NCBI GenBank assembly: GCA_965116475.1
Contig: OZ220691.1
Coordinates: forward strand, 1,760,001-1,824,000
DNA: 64,000 nucleotides
Direction of reading: 5' to 3'
Source: Gemmatimonadota bacterium
GTDB lineage: Bacteria; Gemmatimonadota; Gemmatimonadetes; Palauibacterales; Palauibacteraceae
Shown here: positions 14,640-48,875 of the stretch, one piece after another
How positions within the stretch are numbered: the first letter of the stretch is position 1
How the letters are laid out: each line of letters starts with the position of its first letter
Notes under the pieces: generated by a model
What the model saw: only the letters and a program-made list of their open reading frames with translations
What the model was told of the DNA's origin: nothing
The model's database searches: none
Position numbers and translations under genes: made by a program

Positions 14640-16022
14640 ATGGAGCTGACTGCACACGAGGCCTGGATCAAGATTCGCGCATCGGCGAAGCTCGTGCTCC
14701 CGGAGCAGACCTATCGCACCTGGCTCGGATCGACCGAGGCTATCTCCCTTTCCGACGACACGCTCGTCGTCTCCGCCCCCACGAGGTTCGCGGTCGAATG
14801 GGTCGAGGATAAGTACGGGACGCTCCTGAGGGACATCTCCGAGCGGGAACTCGGCGCCAGGCTTCGGCTCCGCTTCGAGCACCAGGGAGCCGAAGAGCGT
14901 CTCGACTTCCCCGAAATCACCGAACCCTACCCCGGCGACCCGGGTCACGCGCTGACCTCGCAGACGCCGAATCGCGGAGGCCTTCCGGCGGCCGCGGCGC
15001 TGAACGAACGCTACACCTTCGCGCGCTTCGTCATCGGCGGCAGCAACGAACTCGCCGCCGCGGCATCGGACCGCGTGGCCGCTGCGCCCGCGACCACCTA
15101 CAACCCGCTCTTCATCTGGGGCGGCACCGGCCTCGGCAAGACGCACCTGATGCACGCCATCGGAAACACGATTCTCGACCGGCTGCCGGACTGCCAGGTC
15201 GCCTACGTCCCCTCGGAGCAGTTCACCAACGAGATGATCGATGCGATCCGGACCGGGCAGACCGCCCTCTTCCGCGAGCGCTATCGCCGTATCGACGTGC
15301 TGCTCATCGATGACGTCCATTTCATCGCCAACAAGGAAGGGACGCAGGAGGAGTTCTTCCACACGTTCAACGCGCTCTACGACGCCAAGAAACAGATCGT
15401 CATCACGAGCGACCGTCCCCCGCAGGACATCCCCGGGCTCCAGGAACGTCTCGTTTCCCGCTTCGAGTGGGGTCTCGTCACCGACATTCAGCCCCCCGAC
15501 CTCGAGACGCGTTCCGCGATCCTGCGCAAGAAGGCCGATGAGGACGGGATCGAGATCGACGACGACGTCATCGAGTACGTGGCCCGGAGTCGGCGTACCT
15601 CCGTCCGGCAACTCGAGGGGGCCCTCATCAAGCTCCTCGCCTTCAGCTCGCTCACCCGGCGCGAAATCTCGCTCGACATGGCGCGCGACGCGCTGGGGCC
15701 CGAGGGCAACGAAGCCGACGAGCCGGTGATCGAAGTGTCTCCGGAAGAAGTCCGTGCCCGCATCGCCGCCTCCTGGGGCGTCTCCGTAGAGGCACTCGTG
15801 TCGAAGAGGCGGAACCGGACCGTGACGGTGCCCCGGCAGGTCGCGATGTACCTCATCAAGACACATCTCGATCTGCCCTATTCGGACATCGGCCACCTCT
15901 TCGGCGGCAGGAATCACTCGACCGTCATCCACTCCGTCAACAAGGTAGAGGCGGACATGGCGTCGGATCCCGCTCTTCGCGGCCGCGTCGGCCAGCTGCA
16001 GCACGAGCTGTTTCGAACCTGA
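14640..16022 (+). CDS. dnaA: Chromosomal replication initiator DnaA
   Basis: YNPLFIWGGTGLGKTHL, LLIDDVHF, QEEFFHTFN, RLVSRFEWG; domain IV GGRNHSTVIHS. Confidence 0.98.
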   Translation: MELTAHEAWIKIRASAKLVLPEQTYRTWLGSTEAISLSDDTLVVSAPTRFAVEWVEDKYGTLLRDISERELGARLRLRFEHQGAEERLDFPEITEPYPGDPGHALTSQTPNRGGLPAAAALNERYTFARFVIGGSNELAAAASDRVAAAPATTYNPLFIWGGTGLGKTHLMHAIGNTILDRLPDCQVAYVPSEQFTNEMIDAIRTGQTALFRERYRRIDVLLIDDVHFIANKEGTQEEFFHTFNALYDAKKQIVITSDRPPQDIPGLQERLVSRFEWGLVTDIQPPDLETRSAILRKKADEDGIEIDDDVIEYVARSRRTSVRQLEGALIKLLAFSSLTRREISLDMARDALGPEGNEADEPVIEVSPEEVRARIAASWGVSVEALVSKRRNRTVTVPRQVAMYLIKTHLDLPYSDIGHLFGGRNHSTVIHSVNKVEADMASDPALRGRVGQLQHELFRT

Positions 16023-16304: not shown

Positions 16305-17432
16305 ATGAGATTCTCGATTACCCGAGAGGCGCTCCAGAAGGGGCTGGCGGCCACCGCTGCCGCCGTCCCCACCCGAGCCGCGCTCCCGGTGCTCTCGAAT
16401 ATCCTGATCCACGCGGAGGACGATGCCGTGCGGCTGAGCGGCACGGACATGTCGATCTTCGTCTCGTTGTCCGTGCCGGCCGAGATCTCCGAAGCGGGAG
16501 TGGTCGCGCTGCCGGCGAGACAGCTCCTGGAGATCTCGCGCGTACTCGACGACGCGCCCGTGAAGTTCGCGGCTGCGGCGGGAGACCGCGACGCGGCGGC
16601 AACCGGAGTGGACATCGAGTGCGGCCGGAGCAAGTTCCGCCTTTACGGACAGGCCCCGGACGAGTTCCCGGATTTCCCGGAGGTCGACTTCGACGGGGGC
16701 TGGGAAATGTCTGCGGGCGACCTGCAGACCCTGATCGAGCGGACGAGTTTCGCCGTTTCCACGGAGGACAGCCGACCGATTCTGAACGGGATTCTGTGGC
16801 AGTTGCGCGCAGCCGGGACCGTCATGGTCGCAACGAACGGCCACCGGCTGGCGAAGGTGTCACGCGAGCTCGAGGTCGGCGGCTCGCCGGCGGAGGTGGA
16901 TCTCATCATTCCGCCCAAGGCGCTGAACCAGGTGCAGAAGCTGTATTCGGCCGACACCGTGCTTCAGATCGCGCGCTCGGAGAACCACCTGGCGTTCCGC
17001 TCCGAGGACCGGGAGGTCTTCACTTCGCTCATCGAGGGGCCGTATCCGAACTACGAGCAGGTGATCCCGAAGGACAACGACAAGGTGGCGACCGTGAACC
17101 GGGCGGCGCTCGAGACGGCGGTGCGGCGCGTCGCGGTGATGGCGGACGATTCGACGCGGCGAGTGCGCCTCTCCTTCAAGGCCGGCGACCTCGGGTTCAA
17201 GGTCCAGACGCCGGATCTCGGGGAGGCGGAGGACGCGCTGTCGCTGGACTACGAGGGTGAGGACATCCAGATCGGTTTCAATGCGACGTACCTCCTCGAG
17301 GTGTTGCGTCACATGCCGGAGGAGGATGTCCGAATGACGTTCAAGGCGCCGGAACGGGCCGCGACGTTCTCCCCGGCGAGCGGGGAACCCGACTACCTCT
17401 GCCTCGTGATGCCGCTGCGCATCCTCGACTGA
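16305..17432 (+). CDS. dnaN: DNA polymerase III beta sliding clamp
   Basis: LPVLSNIL, VATNGHRL, LIEGPYPNYEQVIP, IGFNATYL and LVMPLR motifs. Confidence 0.97.
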   Translation: MRFSITREALQKGLAATAAAVPTRAALPVLSNILIHAEDDAVRLSGTDMSIFVSLSVPAEISEAGVVALPARQLLEISRVLDDAPVKFAAAAGDRDAAATGVDIECGRSKFRLYGQAPDEFPDFPEVDFDGGWEMSAGDLQTLIERTSFAVSTEDSRPILNGILWQLRAAGTVMVATNGHRLAKVSRELEVGGSPAEVDLIIPPKALNQVQKLYSADTVLQIARSENHLAFRSEDREVFTSLIEGPYPNYEQVIPKDNDKVATVNRAALETAVRRVAVMADDSTRRVRLSFKAGDLGFKVQTPDLGEAEDALSLDYEGEDIQIGFNATYLLEVLRHMPEEDVRMTFKAPERAATFSPASGEPDYLCLVMPLRILD

Positions 17433-18936: not shown

Positions 18937-19754
18937 CGTCGCGGGGACGCCGCCCACGTGTGCGATCGTCGCGCGTGGCCCTCCACGGACCGGAGATCGC
19001 GGCGGTTCGGGCCGACAACCCGGGCCCGCTCACGCTGACCGGGACGCAGACGTATGTGATCGGGACGGGGCCGCTGATCGTGCTGGACCCCGGGCCGCCG
19101 GACGAAGCGCACCTCGACCGCATCGATGACGTGATCGCGGGAAGACCCGTGGCGGCGGTCTGCCTGACGCACGCGCACGCGGACCACGCGGCGTCCGCGG
19201 CGGGTGCCTCCGCCCGCTGGGGAGAGCTCCGCGCCTCCTCCGCCACCCTCGACCTCGTGGGGGCGGCGGGCCGCGCGCTGGCGGACGACGAGGTCCTGGA
19301 GCCCGGAGAGGGCCTCCGCCTGCGGGTGATCCCGACGCCCGGTCATGCCGCGGACCACCTCTGTTACCTGCTCGAGCCCTCGCGCGCCCTCTTCACGGGG
19401 GATCTCGTACTCGGCGAAGGCAGCACCATGATCGCCCACCCGGATGGGTCCGTGGAGGCCTACCTCGCGAGTCTCGCGCGCCTCGCGGCCCTCCGTCCCG
19501 CGCGCCTGCTCCCGGGACACGGCCCACCCGTCGAGGATGCGCTCGCACGCCTCGAAGAATGCCGCGCGCACCGGCTGCGCCGCGTGGCGTCCGTTCGGCG
19601 GGCGCTGGAGGCCGGCGCCCGAACCCCGGAACGGATCCGGGCCGCGGTCTACGGGGATCTTCCCGCCTCACACCACGCGGCGGCGCACCTGACGATCCGC
19701 GCCTACCTCGCCTTTCTCGGGGAGACAACCTCGTCGATCAGCCGTCGGAGATAG
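18933..19754 (+). CDS. MBL-fold metallo-hydrolase (LACTB2-like)
   Basis: NPGPLTLTGT, THAHADH, TPGHAADH, FTGD and PGHG motifs. Confidence 0.88.
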   Translation: MTSRGRRPRVRSSRVALHGPEIAAVRADNPGPLTLTGTQTYVIGTGPLIVLDPGPPDEAHLDRIDDVIAGRPVAAVCLTHAHADHAASAAGASARWGELRASSATLDLVGAAGRALADDEVLEPGEGLRLRVIPTPGHAADHLCYLLEPSRALFTGDLVLGEGSTMIAHPDGSVEAYLASLARLAALRPARLLPGHGPPVEDALARLEECRAHRLRRVASVRRALEAGARTPERIRAAVYGDLPASHHAAAHLTIRAYLAFLGETTSSISRRR

Positions 19755-20806
19755 GCGGGAAACGCGAGATCGCCGAATTCCCCGGGGCCCACCCACCGGT
19801 GCGGCTGCTCCCCCGCAACGTGGCCGGACCGCCACCGGGCCCCGTGCACCGCGAGCCGCAGACGGAAATGGCTGAACGTATGCCGCAGCACGCGGATTTC
19901 CCCGCCCACGCGACAGTCGATACCGAACCGTTCCCGGAGCGCTGTCGTGAGCGCGGCCACGGCGGCCGCGGGCAGGGTCGGCGAGGATAGCGCGACGGAC
20001 GGGAAGTCCCACAGGCCGCCCAGGAGCCCGTCCGACGGCCGGCGCACCACAAGCACCCGTCCGCCCCGGCGGACCACGGCCGCCGCCTCGACCCGCTCGG
20101 GGGACCTGGCGCGCGTCTTCCTCCGGGGACGCTGCCCGACCGTGCCCCGCCGCAGCGCCAGGCATCGGTTCGACAGCGGGCACGCTTCGCAACTCGGGCG
20201 GCGCGGCGTACAGACGGCGCTTCCGAGGTCCATCAGCGCCTGGTTCACGTCCCCCGGCCGCCGCGAGGCCGCGCCGAGGAGCGTTCGTGCGGCCCGATCC
20301 AACTCGGAGGGCGAGCCCGTCTCGAGATCGCCCAGGCGCGACAGGACGCGGCGTGCGTTCCCATCGACCGCGGGTTCCGGCAGCCCGAACGCGATACTGG
20401 CGACGGCCCCCGCCGTATAGGGGCCCACCCCCGGGAGCGTCCGCAGCTCCGACACCGCCCGAGGGATCCGTCCGCCGTACTCCGACACCACGCGCCGCGC
20501 CGCCCGACGCAGGTTGCGGGCCCGCGCGTAGTACCCCAATCCCTCCCAGAGGCCGAGAACCTCGTCCTCCTCCGCTTCCGCGAGCGTCCGCACGTCGGGG
20601 AAGCGATCCATGAACCTCCGATGGTACGGGCCGGCGGTCTCCGCGCGCGTCTGCTGCGCCATCACCTCCGCCACCAGGATCGCGTAGGGGTCACGCTCTC
20701 CGCGCCACGCGATGTCGTCCCGCCGCCGCGCGTCGAACCAGTCCAGCAGCGGCGCCGCCGCCGCCGCCGCGGCCGCGTCAGCGCGAGGCTTCCGGGAAGA
20801 CGCCAT
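19703..20806 (-). CDS. mutY: A/G-specific adenine glycosylase MutY
   Basis: EVMAQQT, WEGLGYYARARNL, LPGVGPYTA, VDGN; 4Fe-4S motif CTPRRPSCEACPLSNRC. Confidence 0.95.
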   Translation of the reverse strand: MASSRKPRADAAAAAAAAPLLDWFDARRRDDIAWRGERDPYAILVAEVMAQQTRAETAGPYHRRFMDRFPDVRTLAEAEEDEVLGLWEGLGYYARARNLRRAARRVVSEYGGRIPRAVSELRTLPGVGPYTAGAVASIAFGLPEPAVDGNARRVLSRLGDLETGSPSELDRAARTLLGAASRRPGDVNQALMDLGSAVCTPRRPSCEACPLSNRCLALRRGTVGQRPRRKTRARSPERVEAAAVVRRGGRVLVVRRPSDGLLGGLWDFPSVALSSPTLPAAAVAALTTALRERFGIDCRVGGEIRVLRHTFSHFRLRLAVHGARWRSGHVAGEQPHRWVGPGEFGDLAFPAYLRRLIDEVVSPRKAR

Positions 20807-21581
20807 CGAAGATGAACACCGCGGGTCCGGTGAGGCGGATCCGCTCCGCCTCGAGGAATTCCACCGTCAGCGCGGCCCCGGACCGGGCGAGGAACTCGAC
20901 CCGGTCCCCCGCCTCCCCCGCGGCCCGGAGAGCGAACGCGACCGCCATGCAGCCGCTGCCGCAGGCGAGCGTCTCCCCCTCCACGCCCCGTTCGAAGGTG
21001 CGGATCGACGCGGTCCCTCCGTCGCGGGCGACAAGGTGCACATTCGCCCCTCCCGGACCGACATCCTCGCGCCACCGCAGCGGTCGGCAGAGATCTTCGA
21101 AGTCCTCCACCTCCACCGACGGGACGGGAACCACGAGGTGTGCCGTCCCCATCCGCACCAGCCAGGCGTCCCGTTCCCCCGCCGCCCCGCCGCCGAGGGG
21201 CACGCGCAGGTCACGTTCCACGCCGGCGTCGAGCGCGTATTCCAGCGCCACGCGGTCCTCCCGCACCCGCGCCAGGATCTCACCGTCGTCCGTCACGAGG
21301 ATGTGATCGGGGGGCACGAGCCCCCGGTCCACCGCGTAACGCGCCGCGCAACGCGAACCGTTCCCGCAGGTGGAGAACTCGGAGCCATCGCGGTTGAAGA
21401 ACCGGAGGCGTACGACTTCCTCGCTCAGGCTTCGGACCGTGATCAACCCGTCCACGCCCACGCCCGTCTGGCGGGGGCACAGCGCGGCGGCCAGGGCCCC
21501 CGCATCCCGGAGCCCCAGTTCTTCGCCCCGCACGATCACGAAGTCATTGCCGGCTCCGGTGTATTTGCTGAATAACGACAT
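20778..21581 (-). CDS. dapF: Diaminopimelate epimerase
   Basis: FSKYTGAGNDF, CGNGSRC and FERGVEGETLACGSG. Confidence 0.92.
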   Translation of the reverse strand: MSLFSKYTGAGNDFVIVRGEELGLRDAGALAAALCPRQTGVGVDGLITVRSLSEEVVRLRFFNRDGSEFSTCGNGSRCAARYAVDRGLVPPDHILVTDDGEILARVREDRVALEYALDAGVERDLRVPLGGGAAGERDAWLVRMGTAHLVVPVPSVEVEDFEDLCRPLRWREDVGPGGANVHLVARDGGTASIRTFERGVEGETLACGSGCMAVAFALRAAGEAGDRVEFLARSGAALTVEFLEAERIRLTGPAVFIFDGVFPEASR

Positions 21582-21601
21582 TTTCAGAGGGGAGGGGGGA
21601 C

Positions 21602-21642
21602 AAAAAGGAAGCCGGCCGCGAGCGTGAAGCCCGCGGCCGGCT
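21602..21642 (-). terminator. Intrinsic terminator upstream of dapF
   Basis: AGCCGGCCGCGGGC-ttcac-GCTCGCGGCCGGCT followed by TCCTTTTT on the minus strand. Confidence 0.85.
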
Positions 21643-21737
21643 CTTGTCTCAACCGAAACCTGACTCGACGCGACGCCGGCGAGGCACCGCAGCTTTCAGG
21701 TCGGCGCATGTCTCGAGCGCCACCGGTTCAGGACCGG

Positions 21738-21803
21738 TTACGCTGCCTCGAGGCGATCGCTTGCCCGTGCCGAGTCAGACCCGGTTCTACATCCTGCAGA
21801 CAC
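21738..21803 (-). CDS. Putative 21-aa small peptide MSAGCRTGSDSARASDRLEAA
   Basis: GTG start lies 7 nt after the GGAGG core of AAGGAGGTGATC (21806-21817); TAA stop. Confidence 0.5.
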   Translation of the reverse strand: MSAGCRTGSDSARASDRLEAA

Positions 21804-21956
21804 TAGATCACCTCCTTCCAAAGGGTTTACGGATAGGGCACGAAAGCACCTACTGCCCGCAATGATGCCGTCCGGTCGGTCGCGCGGCAAGTTTTTTCGG
21901 CTTGCCGGCTCCGCCACCTTCCGTGAGAATCAGGCCGGCCAGACGGCGAGGAGGAG

Positions 21957-22646
21957 ATGACGGACAGCCGGACGGAAAGCCAACAGGGGGCGTTGTCGCC
22001 GGAGGAGCGGCAGGCGACGGTGGACCGTCTCTGCGCGCATTTCGCGCGCGACGCCATGAATACGACCGAATTGGAACGCCGCCTGGACATCGCGTACACC
22101 GCGCGCACCCGGGCGGAACTCGTCGCGCTCGAGCGCGATCTGCCCGCGCTCCGGAGCGAAACCCGCCCGGCAGTCCCGGAACCCGCGACGACCGCCGCCG
22201 TGCCGGTGGATCCCGCGCGCCCCGTCCAGGAGCACGATCTCATCGTCTCCATCTGGGGGGCGACCGAGCGCAAGGGCAGTTGGGTTCCACCCCGCCAGCT
22301 CACCGCTGTCACCGTGATGGGGGGGACGGATCTCGATTTTCGGCAGGCGGCGTTCGCGGCGGAGACGGTGTCGATCCGGCTCCTTGCGCTCATGGGGGGC
22401 GTCGACATCGTCGTCCCCCCGGGGGTCCGCGTCGAGTGGGGCGGCATCGCGCTCATGGGGGGCGTCTCCATGCCCGAACCCGTCACGCCGCCGGCCCCGG
22501 ACGCTCCCGTCATCCGCCTCAGCGGCCTCGTCTGCATGGGAGGCGTCGACGTCGTCGAGCGACACCCGGGCGAGAGCGCGAGGGACGCGCGGAAGCGGAT
22601 CAGAAAGGATCGCAAAGCCCGGCGAAGACTCGCTTCGGGCGACTAG
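21957..22646 (+). CDS. DUF1707 (SHOCT-like) protein with LiaF-like C-terminal domain
   Basis: ERQATVDRL...ELERRLDIAYTARTRAEL..DLP, then VMGGTDLDFR/MGGVDIVVP repeats; strong SD. Confidence 0.8.
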   Translation: MTDSRTESQQGALSPEERQATVDRLCAHFARDAMNTTELERRLDIAYTARTRAELVALERDLPALRSETRPAVPEPATTAAVPVDPARPVQEHDLIVSIWGATERKGSWVPPRQLTAVTVMGGTDLDFRQAAFAAETVSIRLLALMGGVDIVVPPGVRVEWGGIALMGGVSMPEPVTPPAPDAPVIRLSGLVCMGGVDVVERHPGESARDARKRIRKDRKARRRLASGD

Positions 22647-47876: not shown

Positions 47877-48875
47877 ATGCCTGGATCGGCGCTGCCGATC
47901 GAACCACAGCGAGACAGCGCGAGAGCGCGGAAGATCCACACGCCCGCGCCCGCGTCGAACGGCGCGGGTCGGGCTGCGGAATCGTGCGCGGATGCGCCCC
48001 TCGTGCGGCTGGATCACCTGGACACGCTCTGGTTCCAGGTCACCGGGACGATCTGCAACCTGCGCTGCGTCCACTGCTTCATCAGCTGCGCCCCGGACAA
48101 CGACAGCTTCGAGTTCCTCTCGCTCGCCGAGGTCGAGGACTGGCTGCGGCGCTCGGAGAAGTGGGGCGTCAAGGAGTACTACTTCACCGGCGGCGAGCCC
48201 TTCATGCACCCCGACCTCCCCGCCATGCTGGAGCGGACCCTGGAGCGGGGGCCGGCTTCCGTGCTGACGAACGGGACCCTGCTCCCCGCGCGGGCCCTGA
48301 AGCCCATCGCCCGGACCGCCCGCGCGGCGCGCTACTCGCTCGAGATGCGCGTGTCCCTCGATGGACCGTCGCCCGAGATGAACGACCCCATCCGGGGGGA
48401 GGGCACCTTCGACCGCGCCATGGACGGCGTCCGGAAGCTGCTCGAGGCGGGGTTCCTGCCGATCATCACCGCCACGCAGGTGTGGGAACCGGAACGGGAC
48501 GAAGAGGTGCGGCAGGCGTTCGTCGCCCGGCTTCGGGCGCTGGGGTACGAGCACCCGCGGCTCAAGATCCTCCCGTCGCTCCGCATCGGCCGCGAGGCGG
48601 ACCGCGTGCGCCCCTATTCGGATGAGGAGCGCGTGACGGAGGCGATGATGGAGGGATACGAGGAAAACCAGTTGCTCTGCGCGTCGAGCCGGGTGGTGAC
48701 GAACCGCGGCATCTACGCCTGTCCGATCCTCATCGAGACGCCGGCGGCGCGCATGGGTTCGACGCTGGAGGAGGCGTCCGCCCCGGTGCGGCTCGGCGAG
48801 TCCGCGTGCTACACGTGCTGGCTGCACGGCGCGATCTGCTCCAACTACGGGGGCATCGGGCAGGATGTCTCCTGA
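47877..48875 (+). CDS. Radical SAM protein
   Basis: CNLRCVHC, FTGGEPF and LTNG motifs, plus C-terminal Cys cluster; start uncertain. Confidence 0.9.
   Translation: MPGSALPIEPQRDSARARKIHTPAPASNGAGRAAESCADAPLVRLDHLDTLWFQVTGTICNLRCVHCFISCAPDNDSFEFLSLAEVEDWLRRSEKWGVKEYYFTGGEPFMHPDLPAMLERTLERGPASVLTNGTLLPARALKPIARTARAARYSLEMRVSLDGPSPEMNDPIRGEGTFDRAMDGVRKLLEAGFLPIITATQVWEPERDEEVRQAFVARLRALGYEHPRLKILPSLRIGREADRVRPYSDEERVTEAMMEGYEENQLLCASSRVVTNRGIYACPILIETPAARMGSTLEEASAPVRLGESACYTCWLHGAICSNYGGIGQDVS

Follow-up and report, generated by a model that had tools for sequence, protein, structure and literature searches.

A CC2171-like RNA element with an extended ribosome-binding site and a short open reading frame upstream of dapF in a Gemmatimonadota genome

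CC2171, whose original description is said to be that of Landt in 2008, has to our knowledge been listed as a small RNA (sRNA) without an assigned function since the first Caulobacter sRNA screens. Here it is compared with an RNA element from a 64-kb stretch of a Gemmatimonadota genome (contig OZ220691.1), referred to as the window, in which the element spans 21890..21601 on the minus strand, directly upstream of dapF. An original prediction made from the sequence had placed there an unannotated structured transcript with a long Shine-Dalgarno (SD) sequence and a 21-codon open reading frame (ORF). In Caulobacter, Dataset S1 of PMC4117421 gives CC2171 as CCNA_R0051 at 2404309-2404501, on the evidence of RNA-seq, tiling arrays and a 5' triphosphate, and flags it as conserved; the next gene is convergent. 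Inside CCNA_R0051 the same data set lists a "new" coding sequence (CDS), CCNA_03965 (2404323-2404409, start called CTG), as mapped by ribosome profiling, with footprints of 2048 reads per kilobase per million (RPKM) in M2G and 0 in PYE at RNA levels of about 1700 and 1300 RPKM, respectively. According to the main text of PMC4117421, two previously predicted noncoding RNAs are actually translated. The ribosome occupancy that the original prediction had envisaged is therefore on record for the Caulobacter homologue in M2G. The Caulobacter-type loci L068 and L069 carried an in-frame CTG 18 nt upstream of the GTG; judged from these loci rather than from the NA1000 sequence, we infer that the annotated 29-codon CDS probably consists of six codons over the SD followed by a 22-codon GTG ORF. 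Expression in Methylorubrum was reported by Northern blot in a preprint that states the function as unknown, and PMC5988900 gives, in the part available, predicted targets only. Literature searches on the locus names or on the described function returned only expression data and bioinformatic target predictions, and no published account that treats CC2171 and its relatives as RNAs with gated ribosome loading and a disposable ORF was found in our limited literature collection.

The Rfam search at the gathering score gave 0 hits across the window, which excludes 6S RNA, transfer-messenger RNA (tmRNA), riboswitches and known leaders at that threshold. In a local permissive search of 601 nt, the best match was RF01867, the CC2171 family, with 25.2 bits and E = 0.0024, and no other family had an E value below 0.05. 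A strong hit to a known family such as 6S RNA, which would have spoken against the original prediction, was absent, and the CC2171 match was weak. The window sequence GGAAGGAGGUGAUCUAGUGUCU aligned with high posterior probability to the upper-case conserved 5' block of the model, which comprises the extended SD, the spacer, the GTG and TCT. The overall architecture, a closing helix enclosing hairpins and then a terminator, was also found in the window, while the internal helices of the model aligned poorly and were marked as non-canonical. CCNA_R0051 and the window element have in common the 5' block with its extended SD, spacer, GTG and TC, a short ORF that continues into the closing helix, a structured middle, a terminal intrinsic terminator and the status of a free-standing gene. 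They differ in the middle of the RNA, which is unrelated in sequence, in the closing helix, a 17-pair long stem in the window and a 7-bp helix in the CC2171 model, in the host, since CC2171 belongs to Alphaproteobacteria, and in the placement of the window element immediately before dapF. Within the CC2171-like kind, the window copy is set apart by its failure at the curated score, its different body and its origin in a second phylum. We favor, with about even confidence, the reading that the window element is a divergent CC2171-like free-standing sRNA gene whose ribosome loading is gated and whose peptide is incidental.

One genome scan with a fixed 17-base pattern from the 5' block, AGGAGGTGATCNAGTGTC, found at least 120 loci; the family counts given below refer to the loci listed, which came mostly from Alphaproteobacteria and included four loci from Gemmatimonadota. 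L064 and L102 were set aside as ordinary long genes, and L013 is cut by a contig end. Apart from L116, the remaining loci fell into five groups: 66 of the Rhizobiales/Caulobacterales/Acetobacteraceae type (Rhizobiales type for short), 33 Rhodobacterales (L013 included), 14 of the Bradyrhizobium type, and two Gemmatimonadota groups, gemA (the window and L044) and gemB (L006, L017 and L098). Conservation extended to positions outside the search pattern, with A at position -1 in 115/119 and at position -2 in 104/119. When 20 loci were tested against Rfam, 18 matched RF01867 at E ≤ 0.01, no RF01867 match was obtained for L006 and L044, and only four (L068, L034, L054 and L020) reached the gathering score. 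Judged by the 5' block, then, the Rfam model captures only a small part of a much larger family, of which the window copy is among the most divergent members. What is constant across the two phyla is an RBS (ribosome-binding site) in which 12 to 14 nt match the free 3' tail of 16S rRNA, a GTG, an ORF of 10 to 27 codons in a structured body, and a terminator. In blastn searches against plasmids, the window element had no match and a Ruegeria element had a terminator-only match in Azospirillum. Heuristics for the terminator and the closing helix missed many alphaproteobacterial members and were used solely to cut sequences for alignment.

The nearest relative, L044, labelled Gemmatimonadota, also lies upstream of dapF. 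Its element was 74% identical to that of the window (166/225 aligned bases), and nearly all of the first 70 nt were identical. The upper 10 pairs of the long stem were identical in L044, whereas the lower 7 had diverged: U was replaced by C opposite G, and one pair was mismatched. The stems of both internal hairpins were kept with different loops, and the terminators differed by one compensatory pair. The structured transcript unit described in the original prediction appears real, conserved and strand-specific, and its most conserved part is the extended RBS with the GTG.

The frame opened by the conserved GTG closed after 10 to 27 codons in 117 of the 118 assessable members, whereas the control frames +1 and +2 closed within this range in 44/117 and 25/117, respectively, and otherwise ran from 1 to more than 99 codons. 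The short ORF that had been predicted for the window is therefore a constant of the family. All three stop codons were used in each of the three alphaproteobacterial groups, and TAA only in both Gemmatimonadota groups. The encoded peptides, in contrast, were unrelated between groups. There was no third-position excess, with mean column entropies of 0.83, 0.76 and 0.68 at positions 1, 2 and 3 of Rhodobacterales codons 3-18, and the ratio of synonymous to nonsynonymous changes (706:1180 in frame, 825:1231 in frame +1) bore no signature of protein-level selection. NCBIfam assigned 0 families to five mini-peptides. Apparent conserved residues coincided with RNA pairing strands, namely, Trp-Ile of the Rhizobiales type with CTGGATC and Leu-Glu of the Rhodobacterales type with TTGGAG. 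The window peptide is polar and charged and not hydrophobic, and MSAGCRTGSDSARASDRLEAA is without Lys and without a codon run, in agreement with the earlier view that it is neither a type I toxin nor a classic lysine leader.

The RBS has potential partners within the same RNA in every group examined below. In the Rhodobacterales consensus fold, the SD core pairs with a distal CACCTCC-like strand, and the spacer with the start codon pairs with a nearby strand. Across 26 Rhodobacterales sequences, 97.5% of 364 cells were paired in the two RBS-occluding helices versus 51-58% with the partners slid; all changes in these helices were one-sided and pair-preserving, and a shuffle control on the same 26 sequences carried no information, since the search pattern dictates the 5' side. 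In the Rhizobiales type, a CTGG was present 40-75 nt downstream in 63/66, often followed by a GCCTCC-like hexamer, and in 54/63 no fewer than 6 of the 7 possible pairs join this CTGG strand to the spacer/start sequence GATCNAG, four pairs being imposed by the anchor. Two Skermanella plasmids found by blastn had the spacer CCAG changed to CTTG and the internal CTGG changed to CAAG, which amounts to two compensatory pairs and one wobble, and a Methylobacterium plasmid copy had GGTC in place of GATC. These variants make an intramolecular helix a better explanation of the complementarity beyond GATC than pairing with 16S rRNA. Each of the two Skermanella plasmid records (L121 and L123) also held a second matching place, and the family may be multi-copy in some genomes.

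In the consensus fold of the three gemB loci, the SD is held by the leader sequence TACCCCT, and the terminator arms read as SD-like and 16S-like strands. The consensus fold of the window and L044 pairs GAGGTGATC of the RBS with GATCGCCTC (21758-21750, in the ORF) and TGTCTG with CGGGCA. In the minimum free energy (MFE) fold of the window from 21855, the C-rich leader at 21842-21831, whose L044 counterpart is GGTGCCCCATCG, was paired with GG/GGTG of the SD. Over the family, the SD 18-mer found a better partner in the body than mononucleotide shuffles did (mean -18.0 versus -14.6 kcal/mol), and 39/116 beat all 30 shuffles. In the window, the modeled long-stem and SD-helix pairings cross each other and would be either alternatives or parts of a pseudoknot. 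SD-sequestering platforms such as ROSE thermometers and translational riboswitches likewise pair an RBS with an internal anti-SD-like strand, but they control a downstream protein gene, whereas here the controlled frame is an ORF of 10 to 27 codons without a conserved product or a known ligand or temperature signal.

In the mechanism that we propose, the RNA would rest with its RBS occluded by intramolecular partners, in the window the C-rich leader and GATCGCCTC, and a 30S subunit winning the competition would initiate at the GTG. The translating ribosome would unzip the long stem and pass over the internal anti-SD-like strand, the stop codon would be kept for ribosome release before the 3' hairpins and the terminator, and the peptide would be a by-product of translation. 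The RNA would in this way switch between two forms, one closed and one ribosome-bound, and in the latter translation would keep the long stem open. Candidate outputs of the open form are regulation in trans via exposed strands, decay or stability of the RNA itself, and 30S titration. The presence of Caulobacter footprints in M2G and their absence in PYE are consistent with conditional opening.

Several observations weigh against gated ribosome loading in a CC2171-like RNA. The absence of footprints in PYE at a similar RNA level could reflect either regulation or read filtering, and the evidence comes from alphaproteobacterial members, for expression from Caulobacter and Methylorubrum and for ribosomes from Caulobacter. 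The RF01867 match of the window fell short of the gathering score of 75. The fixed pattern makes invariance inside it partly a matter of construction, although blastn of plasmids did find variants, and the family members are related, so that the counts are not independent events. L116, the exception among the ORFs, has the family 5' flank with a 43-codon ORF. For 38 Rhizobiales-type sequences run through MAFFT and RNAalifold, the alignment was noisy and the terminator was the only part with a usable consensus. In the window, the duplex of the SD with GATCGCCTC (-16.5 kcal/mol) had P = 0.088 against 500 dinucleotide shuffles, which is not significant alone, and the minimum-energy fold favors the long stem, with -124.2 kcal/mol versus -115.4 kcal/mol when the SD helix is enforced.

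A chance arrangement in an intergenic spacer is hardly credible. High-GC DNA folds readily and has many open frames, but the fold z-score of the window element was -4.98, with 0/200 dinucleotide shuffles folding as well, and its 18-nt core motif occurred a single time in the window even with 2 mismatches and in 0/100 shuffles; the motif recurs in at least 120 loci, and the L044 element is 74% identical, against an identity of only 62% between the DapF proteins. An ordinary base-pairing sRNA, whose purine-rich 5' block would be a seed for C/U-rich targets and whose ORF would be fortuitous, agrees with the lack of codon-level selection, with the annotation of the family as a noncoding sRNA and with the single-stranded 5' block in the Rfam consensus. 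The GTG at a fixed 7-nt spacing, the confinement of ORF length to one of three frames and the Caulobacter ribosome footprints make it improbable. The converse possibility is a dual-function RNA, in which the 21-aa peptide would be the active product, turned over via its C-terminal Ala-Ala. The window element resembles SgrS/SgrT, RNAIII/hld, SR1/SR1P and VcdRP in being a small terminator-ended transcript with a mini-ORF; the peptides of those systems are conserved and active, whereas the peptides of this family differ by group. The window peptide ends in LEAA, in which the original prediction had seen an ssrA-like degron, and 41/64 unique peptides of Rhizobiales/Caulobacterales end in A and 9/64 in AA against 13% Ala overall, a bias that may reflect either the peptide or the RNA. 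That degron proved unconserved: the L044 peptide ends in SDE, and Ala ends were found in 0/27 unique peptides of Rhodobacterales, 0/10 of the Bradyrhizobium type and 0/3 of gemB. The likeness to the ssrA/tmRNA tag is limited to the Ala-Ala end, which is not conserved in the nearest relative and most groups, and Rfam indicated no tmRNA-like RNA. With peptide sequences unrelated between groups, no synonymous excess, an alphaproteobacterial Trp-Ile that coincides with CTGGATC at the RNA level and 0 NCBIfam families, the active-peptide explanation is very unlikely.

A further rival is a ribosome sponge or sensor, in which the RNA would capture free 30S subunits by the 3' tail of their 16S rRNA in order to titrate or report them and the ORF would only let ribosomes leave. 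The match of 12 to 14 nt to the 16S tail far exceeds the need of initiation and persists in both phyla while the peptide does not, the RNA reaches high levels in Caulobacter (about 900-1700 RPKM), and built-in 16S-like decoys would make binding dependent on competition. At mRNA-like abundance, however, the RNA could occupy only a small share of the ribosomes, binding and stoichiometry are hypothetical, and the complementarity beyond GATC covaries with the internal partner and does not track 16S, so we consider a sponge rather improbable. A cis-acting leader or attenuator of dapF-mutY, in which translation of the mini-ORF would set terminator read-through, was among the functions suggested by the original prediction. 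The terminator does end 19 nt before the dapF ATG at 21581, as had been noted, with the identity of dapF given by Pfam, and the arrangement recurs in L044; no SD is obvious in front of dapF itself. Leader-peptide attenuators such as trpL/rnTrpL of Sinorhizobium, as far as described in the portion of the source available, also place a short ORF with alternative pairings and a terminator just ahead of a biosynthetic gene, and their leader, once released, can work as an sRNA, but the window element lacks regulatory codons such as a Lys run, a predicted antiterminator and a conserved downstream linkage. In constrained folds of the free, 30S-bound and ribosome-at-stop states of the window element, the terminator stayed folded each time and no antiterminator appeared. 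Among the longest downstream ORFs at 78 loci, 37 had a Pfam name and nearly all names differed (NAPRTase, TctC, SDR, RNase R, RF-1-domain, HI0933-like, acyl-CoA dehydrogenase and others); DAP_epimerase occurred in 1/78 (L044), and in Caulobacter the next gene is convergent. Since the neighbors differ at nearly every locus, the element is best read as free-standing, and translation-coupled attenuation of dapF-mutY as its general function is not borne out and has only a slim probability. In both the window and L044, the stretch from the terminator to dapF contained no promoter-like site, so dapF-mutY in this lineage may depend on read-through, a dependence to which we likewise assign a low probability.

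If gated ribosome loading holds, the invariant core of the family is the ribosome-loading site under an intramolecular lock and not the peptide, which is new, as is the reach of the CC2171-like family into a second phylum. This bears on the use of exceptionally strong SD sequences by bacteria with few SD sites, for example, Caulobacter. Standard Rfam-based annotation pipelines would miss the window element. A bolder and doubtful extension is that of a two-phylum RNA family that both binds and imitates the 16S 3' tail: a maximal 5' complement and decoys in the body would make for toehold-like competition with 30S subunits, the ORF would be disposable, the RNA would read or buffer the pool of initiation-competent ribosomes, and the open form would expose anti-SD-like strands to mRNAs.

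Every sequence feature listed in the original prediction, from the promoter-like site to the terminator, was found on the minus strand (Table 1). The long stem comprises 7 + 10 pairs (21786-21766 with 21672-21651), including G-U pairs that are impossible on the opposite strand, as the original prediction had held. The promoter and the 5' hairpin fared less evenly. The promoter-like layout is kept in L044 as TTGCCG-17-CAACAT, but the window site was too weak for the threshold of a consensus promoter scan, and the 5' hairpin, also weak, is not conserved in sequence in L044. Pfam gave 0 families for three ORFs that overlap the element, two on the plus strand (21644-21865 and 21624-21806) and one on the minus strand (21827-22615).

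Table 1. Features of the RNA element and its downstream genes; coordinates are those of the 64-kb window
Feature	Coordinates	Strand	Basis or remark
Promoter-like site TTGCCG, 17-nt spacer, CATCAT	21890-21885 and 21867-21862	-	Read from sequence
C-rich leader segment CGTGCCCTATCC	21831..21842	-	Potential partner of SD core
RBS AAGGAGGTGATC (21817-21806), spacer TA, GTG start (21803-21801)	21801..21817	-	
21-codon ORF MSAGCRTGSDSARASDRLEAA with TAA (21740-21738)	21738..21803	-	Read from sequence
Long stem, 5' strand, within ORF	21766..21786	-	MFE folds; identical in L044
Internal anti-SD-like segment GATCGCCTC, ORF codons 16-18	21750..21758	-	9-bp pairing potential with GAGGTGATC of RBS
Hairpin ACCGGT/ACCGGT	21738-21722	-	MFE folds; directly past stop codon
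Hairpin GGCGC/GCGCC	21721-21703	-	MFE folds
Long stem, 3' strand	21651..21672	-	MFE folds
Intrinsic terminator, 15-bp stem (21643-21609), loop of 5, then CCTTTTTG ending 21601	21601..21643	-	-33.6 kcal/mol
dapF	20778-21581	-	Pfam DAP_epimerase; context, outside RNA
mutY	19703-20806	-	Pfam HhH-GPD and NUDIX_4; context, outside RNA

The 3' end of 16S rRNA is universally conserved, and the complementarity of the RBS was measured with a ruler based on this conserved end and not on the 16S sequence of the host. Against this ruler, the window RBS was the longest GGAGG-containing match in the window (12 nt), with runners-up of 9 nt, as the original prediction had held, and the GTG start sits 7 nt past the GGAGG. 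A longer exact match of 16 nt, AGGTGATCCAGCCGCA, lies at 48004-48019 (-); it is without a GGAGG core and antisense inside a radical-SAM ORF (47877-48875 +). The genes dnaA (14640-16022 +) and dnaN (16305-17432 +) are located about 4 kb from the element, and the window is therefore probably near the chromosomal replication origin.

Further observations concern individual members of the family. Elements typical of Sulfitobacter or Caulobacter relatives were carried by metagenome-assembled genomes labelled Cytophagales (L013), Hydrogenophaga (L104) and Parcubacteria (L109), and these contigs are probably misplaced in their bins. Outside the 5' block, the 10-nt string ACCGAGGTCC was common to the 5' arm of the L006/L017 terminator and to Rhizobiales-type bodies (e.g., L030, L094 and L111), which hints at either body homology or convergent SD mimicry. 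In Rhodobacterales loci (e.g., L029, L040 and L075), a conserved inverted repeat, CACAAAATCTGTG, was present between TTGACA and the -10 of the presumed promoter, about 30-50 nt upstream of the motif, and looks like an operator for some regulator. A heat-shock-type promoter was considered for the alphaproteobacterial members and dropped, as the housekeeping and RpoH consensus sequences overlap according to the available part of PMC3616915. Genes linked to ribosome rescue or quality control were found next to some elements, an RF-1-domain (ArfB-like) gene at L016 (1623-2159 +) and RNase R at L033 and L036 (1775-3016 +), and HflX lies just upstream of the Skermanella mucosa plasmid copy, L123 (1-205 +); the rescue-related neighbors may be coincidental. 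In the Bradyrhizobium-type loci L012 (1258-1328 -) and L057 (1254-1324 -), a tRNA gene in the opposite orientation precedes the element by about 170 nt.

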